From a virus: 64,000 bases of DNA. A model generated the notes under the pieces. The model ran no database searches, was not told the origin of the DNA, and saw only the letters and a list, made by a program, of their open reading frames with translations. The position numbers and the translations under genes were made by a program. Of this stretch, positions 31,295-58,319 are shown in pieces; the stretch's first letter is position 1; each line of letters begins with the position of its first letter. Location of the stretch: IMG/VR virus record IMGVR_UViG_3300045988_147330, positions 32,001 to 96,000 of that record; one strand, 5' to 3'.

Positions 31295-32086
31295 ATGATA
31301 ATAGCTTGGTTTAGTTGCGGTGTAACATCCGCAGTAGCATGTAAGATAGCATTGAGCTTGTATAACGATGTACAACTCTATTATATCGAAACTGGTTCCG
31401 GGCATCCAGATAATGTCCGATTTATCTCAGATTGCGAGAGATGGTACGATCAGCCAATCCACACTATCCGAAGCGACAAATATACTTGTGTTGCTGATGT
31501 TTTACGGAAAGGTTATATTAACGGTGCGCATGGTGCTGCTTGTACTCTTGAGCTGAAAAAGAAAGTCCGTTATAAGTTGGAGAAGGAACTTGGTTCTTGG
31601 GATGGTCAAGTTTGGGGCTTCGACTTTGCCCCGAAAGAAATAAACCGCGCCATCCGCTTTAAGCAACAATATCCATATACAAAGCCGTTGTTCCCACTTA
31701 TTGAAAAGCAGATAACCAAGCAAGATGCAATGGGAATGCTTGGGAAAGTCGGCATTGAAATCCCTGCCATGTACAAGATGGGCTACAATAACAACAACTG
31801 TATCGGTTGTGTGAAAGGTGGCATGGGCTATTGGAATAAGATACGGAAGGATTTTCCGAAAGTGTTTGACCAGATGGCTAAGATTGAGCGTGATGTTGGA
31901 GCTACCTGCCTAAAGGATAAAGACGGTCGTATCTTCCTTGATGAACTACCAACGTGGCGGGGCGACCCAGTAGAAGAGATTATACCGGATTGCTCGCTTA
32001 TCTGCCAAATTGAATTTCAAGAGATTATCGACAGGCAGGTAGCACGAGTTTTGAAAGGAGAAATTAGTATTAACGATGTAGTCTGA
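31295..32086 (+). CDS. PP-loop ATP-pyrophosphatase / PAPS-reductase-family protein
   Basis: MIIAWFSCGVTSAVA PP-loop-like N-terminus; ATG at 31295. Confidence 0.55.
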   Translation: MIIAWFSCGVTSAVACKIALSLYNDVQLYYIETGSGHPDNVRFISDCERWYDQPIHTIRSDKYTCVADVLRKGYINGAHGAACTLELKKKVRYKLEKELGSWDGQVWGFDFAPKEINRAIRFKQQYPYTKPLFPLIEKQITKQDAMGMLGKVGIEIPAMYKMGYNNNNCIGCVKGGMGYWNKIRKDFPKVFDQMAKIERDVGATCLKDKDGRIFLDELPTWRGDPVEEIIPDCSLICQIEFQEIIDRQVARVLKGEISINDVV

Positions 32087-37210: not shown

Positions 37211-37870
37211 ATGAATACAAGAAAAAGAGAAATTCCTTCATTAGAAGGAGAAGTATGGAAAGACATAAAAGGATTTGAATCAATTTATTCAATTTCTAAT
37301 TTCGGAAGAGTATATTTACATGGACGATATGTTTTTGCAGGAAAAAAAATTGGTAAAAGATGGCAACCACCACAATTTATGACACCTCAAGTAAATCAAA
37401 GTGGATATTTAAATCTATTTTTACGAGATAATGGAAAAATAGAAAGAAAATATATTCATAGATTAGTAGCAGAGCATTTTATACCAAATATTTATAATTA
37501 TCCATGTGTAGACCATAAAGATACAAACACTAAAAACAATCATGTATCAAATCTTAGATTCTGTACACATAAAATGAATTCAAACAATCCAAATACTCTA
37601 AATAAGATGTCTAAATCTCATAAAAAAAGGGTATTTGAAAAAAGAATGCGTCATTCATCTGTTGTTGGAATTAATATTAATGATTATAATGATGTCAGAA
37701 CATATTTTTCAATGACAGATGCTAAAAATGATGGATTTAATCCAAATGGTATTAGTAAATGTTGTTTGAAAAGAATAAATCAACATCATGGATTTAAATG
37801 GATGTATCTAAATGAATACGAAACCCTTATCAATAAGTCAAAGAACAAATCTTCCAATGCAGAGATTTAA
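37211..37870 (+). CDS. free-standing HNH homing endonuclease (NUMOD4 + HNH_3-like)
   Basis: GEVWKDIKGFESIYSISNFGRVY; VDHKDTNTKNNHVSNLRFCTHKMN; NUMOD1-like C-terminus. Confidence 0.75.
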   Translation: MNTRKREIPSLEGEVWKDIKGFESIYSISNFGRVYLHGRYVFAGKKIGKRWQPPQFMTPQVNQSGYLNLFLRDNGKIERKYIHRLVAEHFIPNIYNYPCVDHKDTNTKNNHVSNLRFCTHKMNSNNPNTLNKMSKSHKKRVFEKRMRHSSVVGININDYNDVRTYFSMTDAKNDGFNPNGISKCCLKRINQHHGFKWMYLNEYETLINKSKNKSSNAEI

Positions 37871-39562: not shown

Positions 39563-39895
39563 TTACTCTATAGATGATATATTTGCTGAACCATCAACAT
39601 AAATGATATCTCCTGGCGTTACCGAGAAGTATTCTACTGTTCCTTGAGGAAGAAGCATTGATGAATTTTCCAACGCTCTACTTGAACGGGATTTAAATTC
39701 TTCTTTATATAGACTAATTCTACATCCTTCCATAGTAGCTATTCTTACAAGATTAGATGTAGCTGTATACATATTATCTGCAATATCACTTGCAAGTGAT
39801 ATTCTTGCGGCTACAATACCTTTCAATGCTTCATCTTTTGAAGCGTTTGTTTGAGAAAAATATCCTCCTATTTGTTGTCTATCATAGTTCTCCAT
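39563..39895 (-). CDS. hypothetical protein
   Basis: ORF in array. Confidence 0.5.
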   Translation of the reverse strand: MENYDRQQIGGYFSQTNASKDEALKGIVAARISLASDIADNMYTATSNLVRIATMEGCRISLYKEEFKSRSSRALENSSMLLPQGTVEYFSVTPGDIIYVDGSANISSIE

Positions 39896-40238
39896 AGCCT
39901 TTTATAAATGATTTTTTTACACTTTCTGCAAATTCGTTTAATTTTACATAATCTGCGTCTAATTTATTTAATATACCTTTTCTTAGAGCAGCTTCTTCTT
40001 CACCATTAGGAAACTCGTCCTTTATAGCAGCATTTACAGTTTTGTCGTATGATACAGGGTTTTTCACACGCTGTACATCAGCTACCCATTTCTTTACAAA
40101 TTTTCCTTGTACGGGTTCACCAACACTGTCAATATATGGTTCGTCAACCTGTTTTATATTTAAATGTACGTTACTGTACCCTGTCCCTAAATCCAAGATG
40201 AAGGGAGGTTTTTCGTCAAAAATCAATCCTCTTTCCAT
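39882..40238 (-). CDS. hypothetical protein
   Basis: Begins 4 nt after the RT stop. Confidence 0.5.
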   Translation of the reverse strand: MERGLIFDEKPPFILDLGTGYSNVHLNIKQVDEPYIDSVGEPVQGKFVKKWVADVQRVKNPVSYDKTVNAAIKDEFPNGEEEAALRKGILNKLDADYVKLNEFAESVKKSFIKGYGEL

Positions 40239-40241
40239 ATT

Positions 40242-41564
40242 TTAAATATCTAATGTGCCATCAAAATAATAACCTCTATTAAATTTTATAACAACATCTT
40301 CCAATGGGAGAAGGCTTCTGTCAACTTGTGAAAGAAATATACCTATGGATTCATATCCACCTTTTACAAAGCATTTTTCTCCTTTAAACAATATTTGCAT
40401 TCTTACCCATGTGCTATTGTCTTTTTTAGTAGATGGTCTTACATCAAAATCAAGAATATCTATATATTCGTCAACGAGTTTGTCTATTTTTACATCTTTC
40501 CCATCAAACCTTCTTGATACTTTTATTCCTAAATCGCCAATTTTTGTCATGTGGCTATTATTTTTAGTTAAAATTTTATTAATCAAATTTCTAGAATCAC
40601 AGTGCATCAACATTCCCATATAACTTGACACGGAGTTTGGATTGTTTCGTTTTAATGCAAAGTTTTTCTTTATTCTTTTTCTTATTTTAGTATGTCCTGG
40701 CATGAAAACAAATCCACCGAAATCTATTCCTTCTGATACAGGAAATATTCTGTAATTTTTCTTCATTTCCAGTTTCTTTTCATACCAAAGATAATTTCTT
40801 ATTCTCCATAACCATTCATGCAACTGTTTTTTATCATGGGACAGTATTACCATATCATCAGCAAACCTAAAATAATGTTTTACTTTAAACTGCTCCTTTA
40901 TGACGTGATCTAACGATCTCAACACTAAATGGCTTCCTATCTGTGCATCAGGATTTCCAATAGCTAAACCCTTGTTGCTGTAATTAAGCGTATTCATAAG
41001 CCATAATGCATCCCTATCTTTCAGGTCTTTACTATACGCTTTTTTATAAACACTATGTCTTACAGAAGGATAAAACTTCTTAATGTCCATTTTTAAGACA
41101 TATATTTTCCCGTTTTTGTCCATTTCAAGCAACGTTCGCTTCATCTTCTTTACTAGAGAATGTTTCTTAACTTTGCTTGTAATACCTCTTTTGGGCAAAC
41201 AGTTGTACGAATCAAGTGTAAGACTTTTCGTCCATCTATCCATCATTGGTATCAAAAGACTATGTTGGATAATCCTGTCAGGATAAAATGGTAATTTATG
41301 TATCTCCCTTGTTTTTCCTGCATCAGTCACTTTCTCCATTATCTCATACTCACTTACTTGGTATGATTTGTTTTTGAGCATTTGATAAACATTTTGATGG
41401 TATTCATCCTTATGTTTCTCATAATCTCTGACTCCCCTATGATTCCTTTTGCCTTTTTTCGCTTTTTTAGCAGCAGATATTATATTATCCATGCTGCATA
41501 TTGTTTCAAAAATATTATTTACTCTTTTCATTTTTTCGTGCTTTTTCTTTGTCCGTTGAGCCAA
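40242..41564 (-). CDS. DGR reverse transcriptase with about 100-aa C-terminal extension
   Basis: NLISAAKKAKKGKR, DRIIQHSL, LKMDIKKFYPSV, GLAIGNPDAQIGSH, RFADDMVIL; adjacent TR/VR pair. Confidence 0.85.
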   Translation of the reverse strand: MAQRTKKKHEKMKRVNNIFETICSMDNIISAAKKAKKGKRNHRGVRDYEKHKDEYHQNVYQMLKNKSYQVSEYEIMEKVTDAGKTREIHKLPFYPDRIIQHSLLIPMMDRWTKSLTLDSYNCLPKRGITSKVKKHSLVKKMKRTLLEMDKNGKIYVLKMDIKKFYPSVRHSVYKKAYSKDLKDRDALWLMNTLNYSNKGLAIGNPDAQIGSHLVLRSLDHVIKEQFKVKHYFRFADDMVILSHDKKQLHEWLWRIRNYLWYEKKLEMKKNYRIFPVSEGIDFGGFVFMPGHTKIRKRIKKNFALKRNNPNSVSSYMGMLMHCDSRNLINKILTKNNSHMTKIGDLGIKVSRRFDGKDVKIDKLVDEYIDILDFDVRPSTKKDNSTWVRMQILFKGEKCFVKGGYESIGIFLSQVDRSLLPLEDVVIKFNRGYYFDGTLDI

Positions 41565-41692
41565 AGCTAACTAACTTTCCATACACCTACAAATGTGTAT
41601 GTACTAATAAGTTCCCATTCTCTAATAATGGGATGTCTTGTCATTTTTCGTCTTCCTGACGAGGCTTCTGTATAGCAGTAATTTTTTTAAGC

Positions 41693-41802
41693 ACGTTAGC
41701 TGCCACCGATGTTCGTGTTCGCGTTCGTAGGGGCATTGTTCGCATTACCATACCGCAAAGAACAATTGTCGTTGTTCGACTGACCACCAAAGTAAACACC
41801 AC
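41693..41802 (-). repeat. DGR template repeat (TR)
   Basis: 110 bp aligned to 41975-42084; the coding-sense copy carries AAC/AAT codons and an in-frame TAA. Confidence 0.85.
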
Positions 41803-41953: not shown

Positions 41954-43885
41954 TTAGGCTTGGGTTATTGTACAACGGAAGCCGCCACCGATGCTCGTGA
42001 ACGCGATCGTAGGGGCAATGTACGCATTACCAGACCGCAAAGAACAATAGTCGTAGTCCGACCGACCACCAAAGTAAACACCACGTCTTCCAATTTTACC
42101 CGAACCTGCACCCCCTGTAAACCAGTTATAATGGCATTCTCCCGTATGAAGTCCACCACCTTGAGTTTTACCTATAAGACAGTCTTTAAAATTTTCAAGC
42201 TGATATCCTTCGCCTTTGTTCTTAGTACCAATTAAATCATAGATATTTTCAAACCCATACGATTCACCAGGATTTTTATCGGTTGATACATTGTCAGTAG
42301 TCATATTGTTTACCGACTTAGTTTGATATATGTCAATAGATGTGGAATCATGCATAACACAGTCTATTCCACTATACCACATCCATATATCTCCCCATCC
42401 TGCAATTCTTCCCCGTATCAGAGGTTGGGCAAAGCATACTTCAACTTCCCTGTCTGTAACCAACGCAGAATCGGGAATGCTCCATCCTGTTACGCTGATT
42501 GTGAAAAATTTAACAACAACACCGGACATTTCCCCCTCTGCAAGTCCATTATGACCTTGGAAATTAAAATAACGATAAGTGGAACCATCATAGGTGAAAT
42601 CTGTATTTTGTTCAATATTGTTTTCCTTTGCGTATGACATCGCCAACTGTGCTTCAAACATTTTCAGTTTAGGACGATAATTATTGATTACTTGATCAAA
42701 ATTATAAGTAGTTCCTGTTTCAGAAGCCTTGAAGCCAGCTCCATTTATTTTATAATAAACGTATGTCTGATTATCATTCTTTTTAAATCTTATTCCTGTC
42801 ATTTTACCCCAGCTTGAAGCATCAGGCGCAGAATCATTAGATGATATACCTTTTCCACATACAGATTGAGAATGAACATCTTTCGTTCTAAACTTTATAA
42901 ACAAAAGGGTACACCACACATCCAAGTCAAATGCAAAAGCATTTGCGTATGGTAAATTAGATGATGTGTCTGTATTTTTATTTCTTGCATATTGTTCATA
43001 GTTAAAGCGTGAAATATTTGTTGTAGGCCATCCACCTGTAGTCATGATGTTTACGCCCAACATTCCTGCTCCAGTAGTACCCATAATGGTATTATCTCTA
43101 ATTGATCTCTGTTTGTTATCTTTTATTACTGAATATCCGATACACACAGCAAATGGAGCTACAAAGTCGGCTGTATCACCGCCATAAGTAAATGGTATAT
43201 CTCCAACAATCCTTCTTTCATAAGTATCATCAGTTCCTCCATTAATTACCCAAAACGGCTTGGTATTTACTAACATAACATCAGTGCCATCGTCTACTAC
43301 ATCAGTGCCATCTATAATAATATTTGAAGGTGTTCCGTCAGCCATTTTAAATAGATTGGTTTGGTCGAAATATCCTACGACTTTTCCGTCCTTTACTTTA
43401 GCCAGGCGAAATGCATTCAATATAGGATGAGATACCTTAAATTCCTCTTTTCCTATCCATGTCTGATAGACAGGATCACTTTGCCCACGAGACATTTCTA
43501 CACCATATACATTTCCTTGTTGTTGCTTTAATGAATCTAGAAATTGTTTGTCTATATCGGTAAAATCATTTGTAGACAATGATTTGCCTTCCACTTTATC
43601 CACCTTTTTATCTAAGGCTGTCTTTTGCGGATCAGATACAGGCTTTTCCGCGTCAGATGTATTGTCTACTTTAGAAAGTCCAATGTTTTCTTTTGTTATA
43701 TTGACGTTCCCTTTCCTATATGAACTCTCATTGTTACCTTTTACACCTGTTACCATACCTTCTCTTATCTGAGATATAGTGACCGACTTGTTCTTCTTCG
43801 GTTCATCTGTAACGCATGGTATTATCTCTGTACCCGTAACGGTTTCAACGGGAGTCATTTCCGAAATTTTAAGATTTTCTTCCAT
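41954..43885 (-). CDS. DGR target: tail-fibre / receptor-binding-like protein with C-terminal C-type-lectin-fold variable region
   Basis: N-terminus has the fibre-like KSLSTNDFTDIDKQFL; C-terminus GVYFGGRSDYDYCSLRSGNAYIAPTIAFTSIGGGFRC. Confidence 0.85.
   Translation of the reverse strand: MEENLKISEMTPVETVTGTEIIPCVTDEPKKNKSVTISQIREGMVTGVKGNNESSYRKGNVNITKENIGLSKVDNTSDAEKPVSDPQKTALDKKVDKVEGKSLSTNDFTDIDKQFLDSLKQQQGNVYGVEMSRGQSDPVYQTWIGKEEFKVSHPILNAFRLAKVKDGKVVGYFDQTNLFKMADGTPSNIIIDGTDVVDDGTDVMLVNTKPFWVINGGTDDTYERRIVGDIPFTYGGDTADFVAPFAVCIGYSVIKDNKQRSIRDNTIMGTTGAGMLGVNIMTTGGWPTTNISRFNYEQYARNKNTDTSSNLPYANAFAFDLDVWCTLLFIKFRTKDVHSQSVCGKGISSNDSAPDASSWGKMTGIRFKKNDNQTYVYYKINGAGFKASETGTTYNFDQVINNYRPKLKMFEAQLAMSYAKENNIEQNTDFTYDGSTYRYFNFQGHNGLAEGEMSGVVVKFFTISVTGWSIPDSALVTDREVEVCFAQPLIRGRIAGWGDIWMWYSGIDCVMHDSTSIDIYQTKSVNNMTTDNVSTDKNPGESYGFENIYDLIGTKNKGEGYQLENFKDCLIGKTQGGGLHTGECHYNWFTGGAGSGKIGRRGVYFGGRSDYDYCSLRSGNAYIAPTIAFTSIGGGFRCTITQA
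41975..42084 (-). repeat. DGR variable repeat (VR)
   Basis: 14 mismatches to TR, all at TR adenines (coding sense). Confidence 0.85.
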
Positions 43886-45904: not shown

Positions 45905-45949
45905 GCATAAAATTCGTTAAACAATTTGGTTATGAGCAGTTTTGTGCAG

Positions 45950-45957
45950 TATATTTG
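45950..45957 (+). promoter_or_regulatory. Bacteroidota-type -7 box (TATATTTG)
   Basis: Exact TAnnTTTG 26 nt upstream of the ATG at 45983; divergent from 45897-45904. Confidence 0.5.
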
Positions 45958-45982
45958 CTTAAAAATAAAAAATATAATATCA

Positions 45983-46351
45983 ATGAATGTATTAAGTTTA
46001 TGTGATGGTATAGCCTGCGGTAGAATTGCTCTTGAACGAGCAGGGATAAAGGTGAATAAGTATTACGCAAGCGAGATAAATGAACCGTCTATTAAGGTGG
46101 CATTAGACAATTATCCTGATATCATAGAGTTAGGTGATATCAGGAATTGGAAAGAATGGAATATAGAATGGAAAGATATTGATCTGTTGATTGGAGGTAC
46201 ACCATGCCAGGATTTCTCCCGACTTGGAAAGGAGAAGCTAAACTTTGATGGTGAACGTTCTGGGCTGTTCTTTCAATATGTGAACATACTTAATCATATA
46301 AAACAGTTTAATCCAAATGTAAAATTTAGGCAAATGCGGCTATGTGTATAA
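45983..46351 (+). pseudogene. C5 cytosine DNA methyltransferase, truncated after motif IV
   Basis: LSLCDGIACG (motif I), GGTPCQDFS (motif IV), then the frame runs into the TnpB fragment just where the ENV motif is expected. Confidence 0.7.
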
Positions 46352-46589
46352 AGGATTGAAACTTAGCGAGCGTAGTTGGACTTGTCCGGAATGTGGTACA
46401 CACCACGACCGGGACTTCAACGCAGCTTGTAATATCAAGAAATTTGGCTTGAAAGCCCTACCCACGGAGCGAGGGAAAGTCAAGCCTGTGGACTGCCCAA
46501 CGGTGGATGAACGACCTCGTGTCCTAAAAAGCTGCGGCAGGAAGAAGCAGGAAAAAACTCATGCCTTTAGGCGTGGGGAGTTCACATGA
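46329..46589 (+). pseudogene. TnpB C-terminal fragment (zinc finger plus RuvC-III), different family from copies A-D
   Basis: [39 protein letters not shown]. Confidence 0.7.
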
Positions 46590-58204: not shown

Positions 58205-58276
58205 GGTGCTTTGGATGAGCGGTTTAGTCAACAGTCTGCAAAACTGATAACGGCGGTTCGATTCCGCCAAGCACCT
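58205..58276 (+). tRNA. tRNA-Cys (anticodon GCA)
   Basis: GGTGCTT/AAGCACC acceptor stem, GGCGG-TTCGATT-CCGCC T arm, anticodon loop CTGCAAA, GG in the D loop. Confidence 0.75.
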
Positions 58277-58319
58277 CTTGTTCTTGTATTTCAAATTTTT
58301 GTTTTTTTGTTCATAATAA

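Follow-up and report, generated by a model that had tools for sequence, protein, structure and literature searches.

A C-terminal domain of a phage reverse transcriptase looks like a widespread accessory module of diversity-generating retroelements with natural fused and split forms

Results and Discussion

The window, a stretch of 64,000 nucleotides of viral DNA (positions 32,001 to 96,000 of the IMG/VR record IMGVR_UViG_3300045988_147330), carries an active-looking diversity-generating retroelement (DGR) on its minus strand. The reverse transcriptase (RT) of this DGR continues for about 100 residues beyond its polymerase domain. Here, this C-terminal accessory domain, together with the small protein of ~100 aa that corresponds to it, is labelled CT. 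The extension corresponds to a small unnamed protein that has become joined to the RT; in Bacteroidota and their phages, this protein is encoded almost always directly behind such RTs. CT looks like an unrecognised and widespread DGR accessory module that occurs naturally in both fused and split forms, and it is probably the missing helper of DGRs that do not possess the accessory protein Avd. Read along the minus strand, the cassette consists of the target gene with its variable repeat (VR), the template repeat (TR), a structured spacer, the fused RT::CT gene and a further small open reading frame (ORF), termed ORF-X.

The reverse transcriptase and its C-terminal extension

The RT ORF as called mechanically comprises 440 aa from a TTG codon and occupies positions 40242-41564, with the stop codon at 40242-40244. 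This is the length given in the initial annotation, and it holds for the mechanical ORF; the protein itself is probably shorter. Because the homologues begin with 'MKR', ATG 41531 is the most likely true start and gives 429 aa. The RT proper, with fingers, palm and thumb, extends over 40563-41531 (minus strand) and was delimited by Pfam RVT_1, by PHROG 1423 over residues 4-340, and by alignment to Brt of Bordetella phage BPP-1 (PDB 8ub7, 328 aa). Residues 3-279 of Brt, the best solved relative, align to residues 13-301 of the window RT (E 2e-22). Motif 4 reads IGNPDAQ (40959-40979, minus strand; residues 191-197 when numbered from ATG 41531), and motif 5 reads FADD. While the canonical DGR form of motif 4 is GxxxSQ, the window RT has GxxxAQ, and either S or A is found at this position in close relatives.

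Related short RTs of 313-335 aa stop a few residues past the thumb motif 'HCDSxNLI', and therefore ~100 residues of the window RT lie past the thumb. About 50 clusters of 416-462 aa extend ~100 residues further and can be aligned to the C-terminus of the window RT, down to an overall identity of 35%. The C-terminal excess of ~100 aa that had been proposed is thus located beyond the thumb by the alignments to both Brt and the short RTs, and corresponds to CT at 40245-40562 (minus strand, ~106 aa). The possibility that this segment is an ordinary thumb was ruled out, since the short homologues end before CT and CT also occurs as a free-standing protein.

When CT was modelled alone with AlphaFold2 (residues ~335-440; alignment of 31 sequences), a predicted local distance difference test score (pLDDT) of 91.9 was obtained. 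In line with the suggestion that the segment might form a domain of its own, CT is predicted to be an autonomous, confidently folded and beta-rich domain. Its secondary structure, assigned by DSSP on the model, comprises two short helices, E33-43, E51-59, E62-68, H71-77, E87-94 and E98-100, and this strand order (b1-b2-b3-helix-b4-b5) appears OB-like. In a Foldseek search of the model against BFVD, the good matches were other uncharacterised phage RTs and small proteins, one of them of 100 aa.

As stated in the initial annotation, the segment could be assigned to no known family: nothing significant was matched in Pfam, NCBIfam or PHROGs, nor among the PDB sequences, which were searched both with a single sequence and with a profile. 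A tblastn search of the window CT against GenBank phages yielded nothing at E<=1e-3, and relatives there were found only via the RT. In contrast, a CT profile searched against a database of 1.84 billion cluster representatives retrieved 825 clusters at E<=1e-3, 307 of them at E<=1e-10. The members of this family are mostly complete proteins of 97-103 aa and only a few are RT C-termini; every source name is 'hypothetical protein', without a Pfam domain. The C-terminus of the window RT belongs to this family, with 1.8e-45 on the CT profile that includes the window and 1.3e-22 on a profile built of mainly standalone proteins. The standalone CT proteins are usually basic, with a mean isoelectric point (pI) of 8.6.

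Linkage of CT to DGR reverse transcriptases

To follow CT across related systems, 162 related DGR loci gathered with the RT alone as query were scanned in six frames with CT profiles. They comprise 80 bacterial contigs (one genome per species, almost all Bacteroidota), 80 IMG/VR contigs and two look-ups. The RT is closely preceded by a TR/VR pair with adenine bias in 141 of the 162, and these loci are therefore real DGRs. CT is a separate gene on the same strand in 124 loci, three of which are weak matches upstream of the RT, and most of these genes show a 4-10 nt overlap with the RT stop codon. In a further 31 loci, distributed over at least five separate clades, CT is fused to the RT, while it was undetected in the remaining seven, two of which are contig ends. 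The converse approach gave the same picture: starting from CT, the RT was found directly upstream in 7/7 viral loci, and four CT look-ups showed it directly upstream in 5/5 places, including isolates of Galbibacter and Sphingobacterium.

Furthermore, a neighbour-joining tree built on the RT domain, without support values, shows the fused and split states changing into one another at least six times. Repeated fusion of tightly coupled neighbour genes is a classical sign of physical partnership. This gene neighbourhood and the fusions give strong support to the earlier proposal that the C-terminal domain serves the RT as an accessory, and we consider CT very probably an RT-dedicated DGR component.

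CT is kept alongside both large and small target types. In many chromosomal cassettes of Bacteroidota (loci L011, L014-L017, L019 and others), two or three VRs spaced ~400 nt apart lie upstream of a single TR, an arrangement that points to small target genes in tandem. CT is present in these cassettes and ORF-X is absent.

Search for Avd in the window and in related loci

The window represents 64 kb of a genome of ~93-98 kb, related contigs reaching ~98 kb. Its 105 non-nested ORFs of 60-320 aa were searched against Pfam at E<=0.01 and matched 24 families in all, none of which was bAvd (PF22296), PF05635, HRDC or MutS_I. The positive control, Avd of BPP-1, was readily recovered with 7e-36 on PF22296 and 6e-31 on NCBIfam NF033474. 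This agrees with the earlier statement that no Avd lies in or beside the cassette. In the related loci, 242 small ORFs from 24 representative loci gave no NF033474 match among those listed, with one of two batches listed only to ~E 8e-4 and the control again positive, and the precomputed Pfam annotations of neighbour genes likewise contained no Avd. A survey of related RTs, as proposed in the initial annotation, finds the same extension fused in the 31 loci mentioned above and no Avd among the matches listed for the representative ones. BPP-1, which uses Avd, has no CT homologue. Its small gene bbp4, which overlaps the end of brt, was considered as a candidate for one and rejected.

The window contains both adenine-confined TR/VR differences and a DGR-type RT adjoining the TR, arranged in the order target-TR-RT without an avd, HRDC or MSL gene, as in the Avd-less Architecture A of Wu et al. 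2018. In that survey, 29% of DGRs were without an accessory gene, a whole lineage was without avd, and ~20% of the DGR RTs were extended at the C-terminus, by up to 150 aa in which no motif could be recognised (PMC5758913). A crAss-like DGR with the order TG-VR-TR-RT and without avd, that of crAssphage LMMB, has also been described and was assigned to lineage 3 by its authors (Morozova et al. 2020, PMC7290462). Given this frequency and this prior case, the Avd-less architecture is neither uncommon nor new, and the earlier description of it as uncommon has to be abandoned.

The spacer RNA between TR and RT

The spacer between TR and RT contains conserved RNA elements. In the family, a short GC hairpin (P1, mostly UGCC/GGCA) lies ~23 nt past the TR and is followed by an A-run; in the 3' part, 'UUGGUA', the variable P3 hairpin and 'GAA' lie within a stem (P2), after which the ribosome-binding region follows. 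The GUA/GAA internal loop is, in our view, reminiscent of a loop E or sarcin-ricin motif. Across 56 non-redundant spacers, 92.4% of the cells pair compared with 72.7% in shuffles, and 119 cells are changed on both sides compared with 35.7 in shuffles; none of 500 shuffles reached either value. When the 3' partner was slid by 1-3 columns as a control, the scores were far lower. The conserved elements thus covary. Rfam contains no family for this RNA.

A covariance model built from 56 other loci, without the clade of the window, found its best match in the 64 kb in the spacer itself, at 41528-41667 (minus strand; 19.2 bits, E 0.031). In the window, the P1 hairpin (41662-41658 / 41652-41648) is followed by the A-run and by an extra hairpin (41632-41614). 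P2 (41613-41609 / 41577-41573) encloses 'AUUAGUA', the P3 hairpin (41601-41595 / 41586-41580) and 'GGA'; P2 and P3 were read by eye, whereas the covariance model aligned P1, the A-run and the start region only. The spacer RNA may be a partner of RT and CT.

Proposed role of CT

Taken as a whole, the explanation towards which we lean is that the window holds an Avd-less, Bacteroidota-associated DGR with a fused CT subunit doing an Avd-like job. For the more specific statement that the role of CT is Avd-like, we see the chances as even. The same balance applies to the wider proposal that CT is an unrecognised and widespread subunit of DGR RTs, the counterpart of Avd in the Avd-less lineage of Bacteroidota and their phages, which acts together with the conserved spacer RNA.

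According to the proposed mechanism, RT::CT, or RT plus CT in the relatives, would bind the TR-spacer transcript. CT would hold the DGR RNA (TR and spacer) or the nascent cDNA on the polymerase, as the pentameric Avd does for Bordetella Brt, and a template held in this way would let cis-primed, adenine-mutagenic cDNA synthesis start and proceed. The mutagenic cDNA would then replace VR. The separate CT genes of most relatives are translationally coupled to the RT, and the RT::CT of the window would be the naturally occurring single-chain form of a DGR core that otherwise consists of two proteins.

Several points weigh against this explanation. The physical interaction between RT and CT, nucleic-acid binding by CT and its functional equivalence to Avd are what we infer. 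A Foldseek search of the CT model against the PDB gave nothing significant (best E 0.36, TM ~0.3). The weak top matches, individually insignificant, include SSB, PrgE, RPA, LEF-3 and MetRS-C, which we take to be OB-fold proteins, and it is from these and from the DSSP strand order that the OB assignment is suggested. The window CT itself has a pI of 6.8 and is not basic. The search for Avd covered the 64 kb of the genome, and Avd matches weaker than ~E 1e-3 could be hidden in the survey of related loci. The switching between fused and split forms is observed on a tree of the kind described above, with no support values. In addition, CT was undetected in more distant Avd-less RTs, namely those of crAss LMMB, cr50_1, Bacteroides phage Versailles and Firmicutes phages, so that CT is not a universal answer for Avd-less DGRs. 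Finally, the TCA codon (Ser) that the window has at the junction of RT and CT is replaced by an in-frame TAA in sister phages with the same synteny as the window (L176 3977-3979 and L177; ENA contigs). Present in at least 12 contigs, this stop leaves an RT of 325 aa and a CT ORF of 83 aa called from GTG. This TAA could be natural fission, read-through or decay; it implies that the full-length fusion is not strictly required there, or that CT is being lost.

This junction stop codon is also the observation that speaks for a very different explanation, in which the extension arose through faulty annotation or assembly or is a remnant in decay, that is, a neighbour gene joined by a lost stop codon and without any DGR function. 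This is highly improbable, since intact fusions are found in 31 loci of at least five clades and down to 35% identity, CT is conserved across the 825 clusters, and CT is fused to the RT in the DGR of hankyphage, which is experimentally active (PMC12135933).

A role of CT at integration, rather than in holding the template, deserves more weight, although we regard it as unlikely. CT would then be a DNA-binding module like the D domain found in group II intron RTs, made for the VR 3' end (the initiation of mutagenic homing site, IMH, or hairpin), for single-stranded target DNA or for a host replication factor. Group II intron RTs (NCBIfam TIGR04416; GsI-IIC, PDB 6ar1) are the closest non-DGR relatives of the window RT; they belong to the same superfamily and carry an extra module after the thumb, which binds nucleic acid there. 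The OB-like topology predicted for CT would suit binding of single-stranded DNA, and the conservation of CT with large and small target types fits as well. However, CT shares no sequence or structure match with the D domains, and no intron RNA is present in the window. RNA binding and DNA binding are not distinguished by the data, and translational coupling and fusion suit any RT-bound role equally.

If CT does act as an Avd counterpart, it would bear on how Avd-less DGRs work, a question standing since Wu et al. Between about a quarter and a third of the known DGRs are of this kind, among them abundant elements of the human gut (hankyphage, crAss-like phages) as well as those of Bacteroidota chromosomes. 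The question becomes testable with a conserved candidate of ~100 residues that has natural fused and split forms and a matching RNA element. Hankyphage and cultured Sphingobacterium, Elizabethkingia, Pedobacter and Flavobacterium offer tractable systems. A single polypeptide combining RT and accessory could furthermore simplify DGR-based mutagenesis tools.

Comparison with known systems

The window DGR and that of BPP-1 (mtd-avd-TR-brt) share adenine-specific TR-to-VR mutagenesis of a tail-fibre gene, a homologous RT, and a structured spacer that separates the RT from the TR immediately upstream. In the bRT-Avd-RNA ribonucleoprotein of BPP-1 (PDB 8ub7), an 11-bp stem-loop where the spacer begins is bound by Avd, and the accompanying survey took in Avd-containing DGRs only (preprint 10.1101/2023.10.23.563531). 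The window, in contrast, has neither avd nor a long (9-11 bp) stem-loop of the Avd-binding type right after the TR. BPP-1 is without CT, whereas in the window lineage a beta-rich protein of ~100 aa is found on or after the RT. The position of the accessory gene differs accordingly: in BPP-1 it lies between target and TR, in the window lineage downstream of the RT.

A likeness also exists to the Architecture A and the Lineage 3 described by Wu et al. 2018, which have the order target-TR-RT, no avd, Bacteroidota or crAss-like phages as hosts and, often, unassigned C-terminal extensions of the RT. The papers on Avd-less DGRs describe cassettes without accessory genes, save CH1 in lineage 3a, while CT is present in 155 of our 162 loci; cassettes of the window RT lineage annotated as having no accessory gene therefore usually have one, namely CT. 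A 2021 review names Avd, HRDC, MSL and CH1 as the only accessory genes (PMC8632793). In the literature consulted, we found no statement that equates the RT extension with a conserved gene behind the RT that has become fused to it, the supplementary PAG1-4 of Wu et al. 2018 not having been compared.

The RT of crAssphage LMMB (L164 3001-4296) has 431 aa, a C-terminal extension of ~100 aa and 36% identity to the window RT, and it is by this likeness that the window RT may be labelled 'lineage 3'. No similarity between the LMMB extension and CT was detectable by hidden Markov model search or by hhalign. By eye, a few motifs look alike (HFPINFKITK versus FPFxTTIxK). The LMMB extension may be a very divergent CT homologue.

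Hankyphage, a Bacteroides phage with a tail-fibre target, has an RT of 434 aa to which CT is fused (4e-14), although this RT is only ~29% identical to that of the window. An Avd had been proposed for hankyphage on size and pI only (Benler 2018, PMC6199706). This protein, encoded downstream of the RT (L166 4302-4787, Bacteroides phage jmh42_hp), is an acidic DUF4376 protein of 161 aa with a pI of 5.0 and no bAvd match. The annotation is thus to be corrected, as the hankyphage 'Avd' is not an Avd homologue.

ORF-X, a second cassette-linked family

ORF-X (39882-40238, minus strand) directly follows the RT in the window and encodes an acidic protein of 118 aa (pI 5.2), a candidate accessory protein or target partner. 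Homologues found by jackhmmer, with a median length of 118 aa and a mean pI of 4.9, are present in 52 of the 162 loci and always inside the cassette. They occupy three positions: behind RT::CT where the two are fused, between RT and CT where CT is a gene of its own, or between VR and TR (L004, L005, L098-L100, L178), which is the classical avd slot. In 50 of these 52 loci, ORF-X co-occurs with the target family of the window. Since it tracks the target family, ORF-X may serve the target protein rather than the polymerase.

Modelling of ORF-X with AlphaFold2 was poor (pLDDT 65.7; 18 database homologues) and gave beta hairpins and three helices, not a four-helix bundle; its Foldseek matches were meaningless. 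The initial annotation had set the flanking ORFs aside as not looking like four-helix bundles. The prediction for ORF-X likewise shows no such bundle, but its dismissal was wrong, as the family is cassette-linked. The other flanking ORFs (110, 122, 72, 578 and 83 aa) were rejected as cassette components because they were found only in near-identical phages.

ORF-X resembles the description of CH1, which is a protein of 160-169 aa, acidic (pI ~4.7), and found only with the avd-less lineage 3a (PMC5758913). Compared by description only, both are small, acidic and associated with avd-less DGRs, while ORF-X is shorter (118 versus 160-169 aa); the 161-aa protein of hankyphage, likewise compared by description only, fits CH1 better. 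No relationship of ORF-X to the hankyphage protein was found by hhalign. ORF-X may be the published CH1 or a different protein.

It is conceivable that ORF-X, and not CT, is the functional substitute for Avd, in which case CT would do no more than add structure to the RT or help it oligomerise. The three cassette positions including the avd slot, the resemblance to CH1, and the occurrence of ORF-X behind the RT in Avd-less DGRs without detectable CT (cr50_1, Versailles, L106, L112, L156) speak for this. We nevertheless judge it quite improbable, though more probable than an artefact: ORF-X is found in 52 loci against 155 for CT, its association with one target family would be expected of a partner or chaperone of the target, its acidic character sets it apart from the nucleic-acid-binding Avd, and its structure model is poor. 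CT hence remains our preferred candidate for the Avd-like role.

Target gene, repeats and signs of activity

The target gene (41954-43885, minus strand) encodes a tail-fibre-like protein of 643 aa, whose N-terminal region matches phage tail-fibre PHROGs and whose homologues act as the target in 56 related loci. Its VR region has no Pfam match. The VR (41975-42084, minus strand, 110 nt), at the 3' end of the gene, is 87% identical to the TR (41693-41802, minus strand), and over the 110 nt the mismatches are solely at TR adenines. The TR sits 172 nt downstream of the VR and ends ~160 nt upstream of the RT start. The gap between target and RT, given before as 388 bp, measures 389 nt when counted from the TTG start of the RT ORF.

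Fifteen IMG/VR contigs carry an RT that is 91-93% identical to the window RT. Together with the window, these 16 related phage genomes have 15 distinct VRs, in which 27 of 28 TR-adenine columns are variable compared with 14 of 82 others. As the VR columns vary mainly at TR adenines, this DGR has been diversifying in nature.

The phage itself is crAss-like, with two ORFs that reach 2575 and 1876 aa and a match to the domain crAss001_48; no near relative of it was found among GenBank phages.

Other observations in the window

At 45926-46589 (plus strand), the N-terminal piece of a C5 DNA methylase, with the PCQ motif, leads into an ORF whose zinc-finger (TNB) domain is TnpB/Cas12f-like; the Pfam matches were tied to these ORFs by reading the translations. 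The region has the look of a methylase that was disrupted, beside what is left of a TnpB. An ORF of the NUMOD4/HNH homing endonuclease type (37211-37870, plus strand), recognised by motifs and pooled Pfam matches, lies within the block of structural genes on the opposite strand. A single tRNA-Cys (GCA) gene is located at 58205-58277 (plus strand), between the two giant ORFs.

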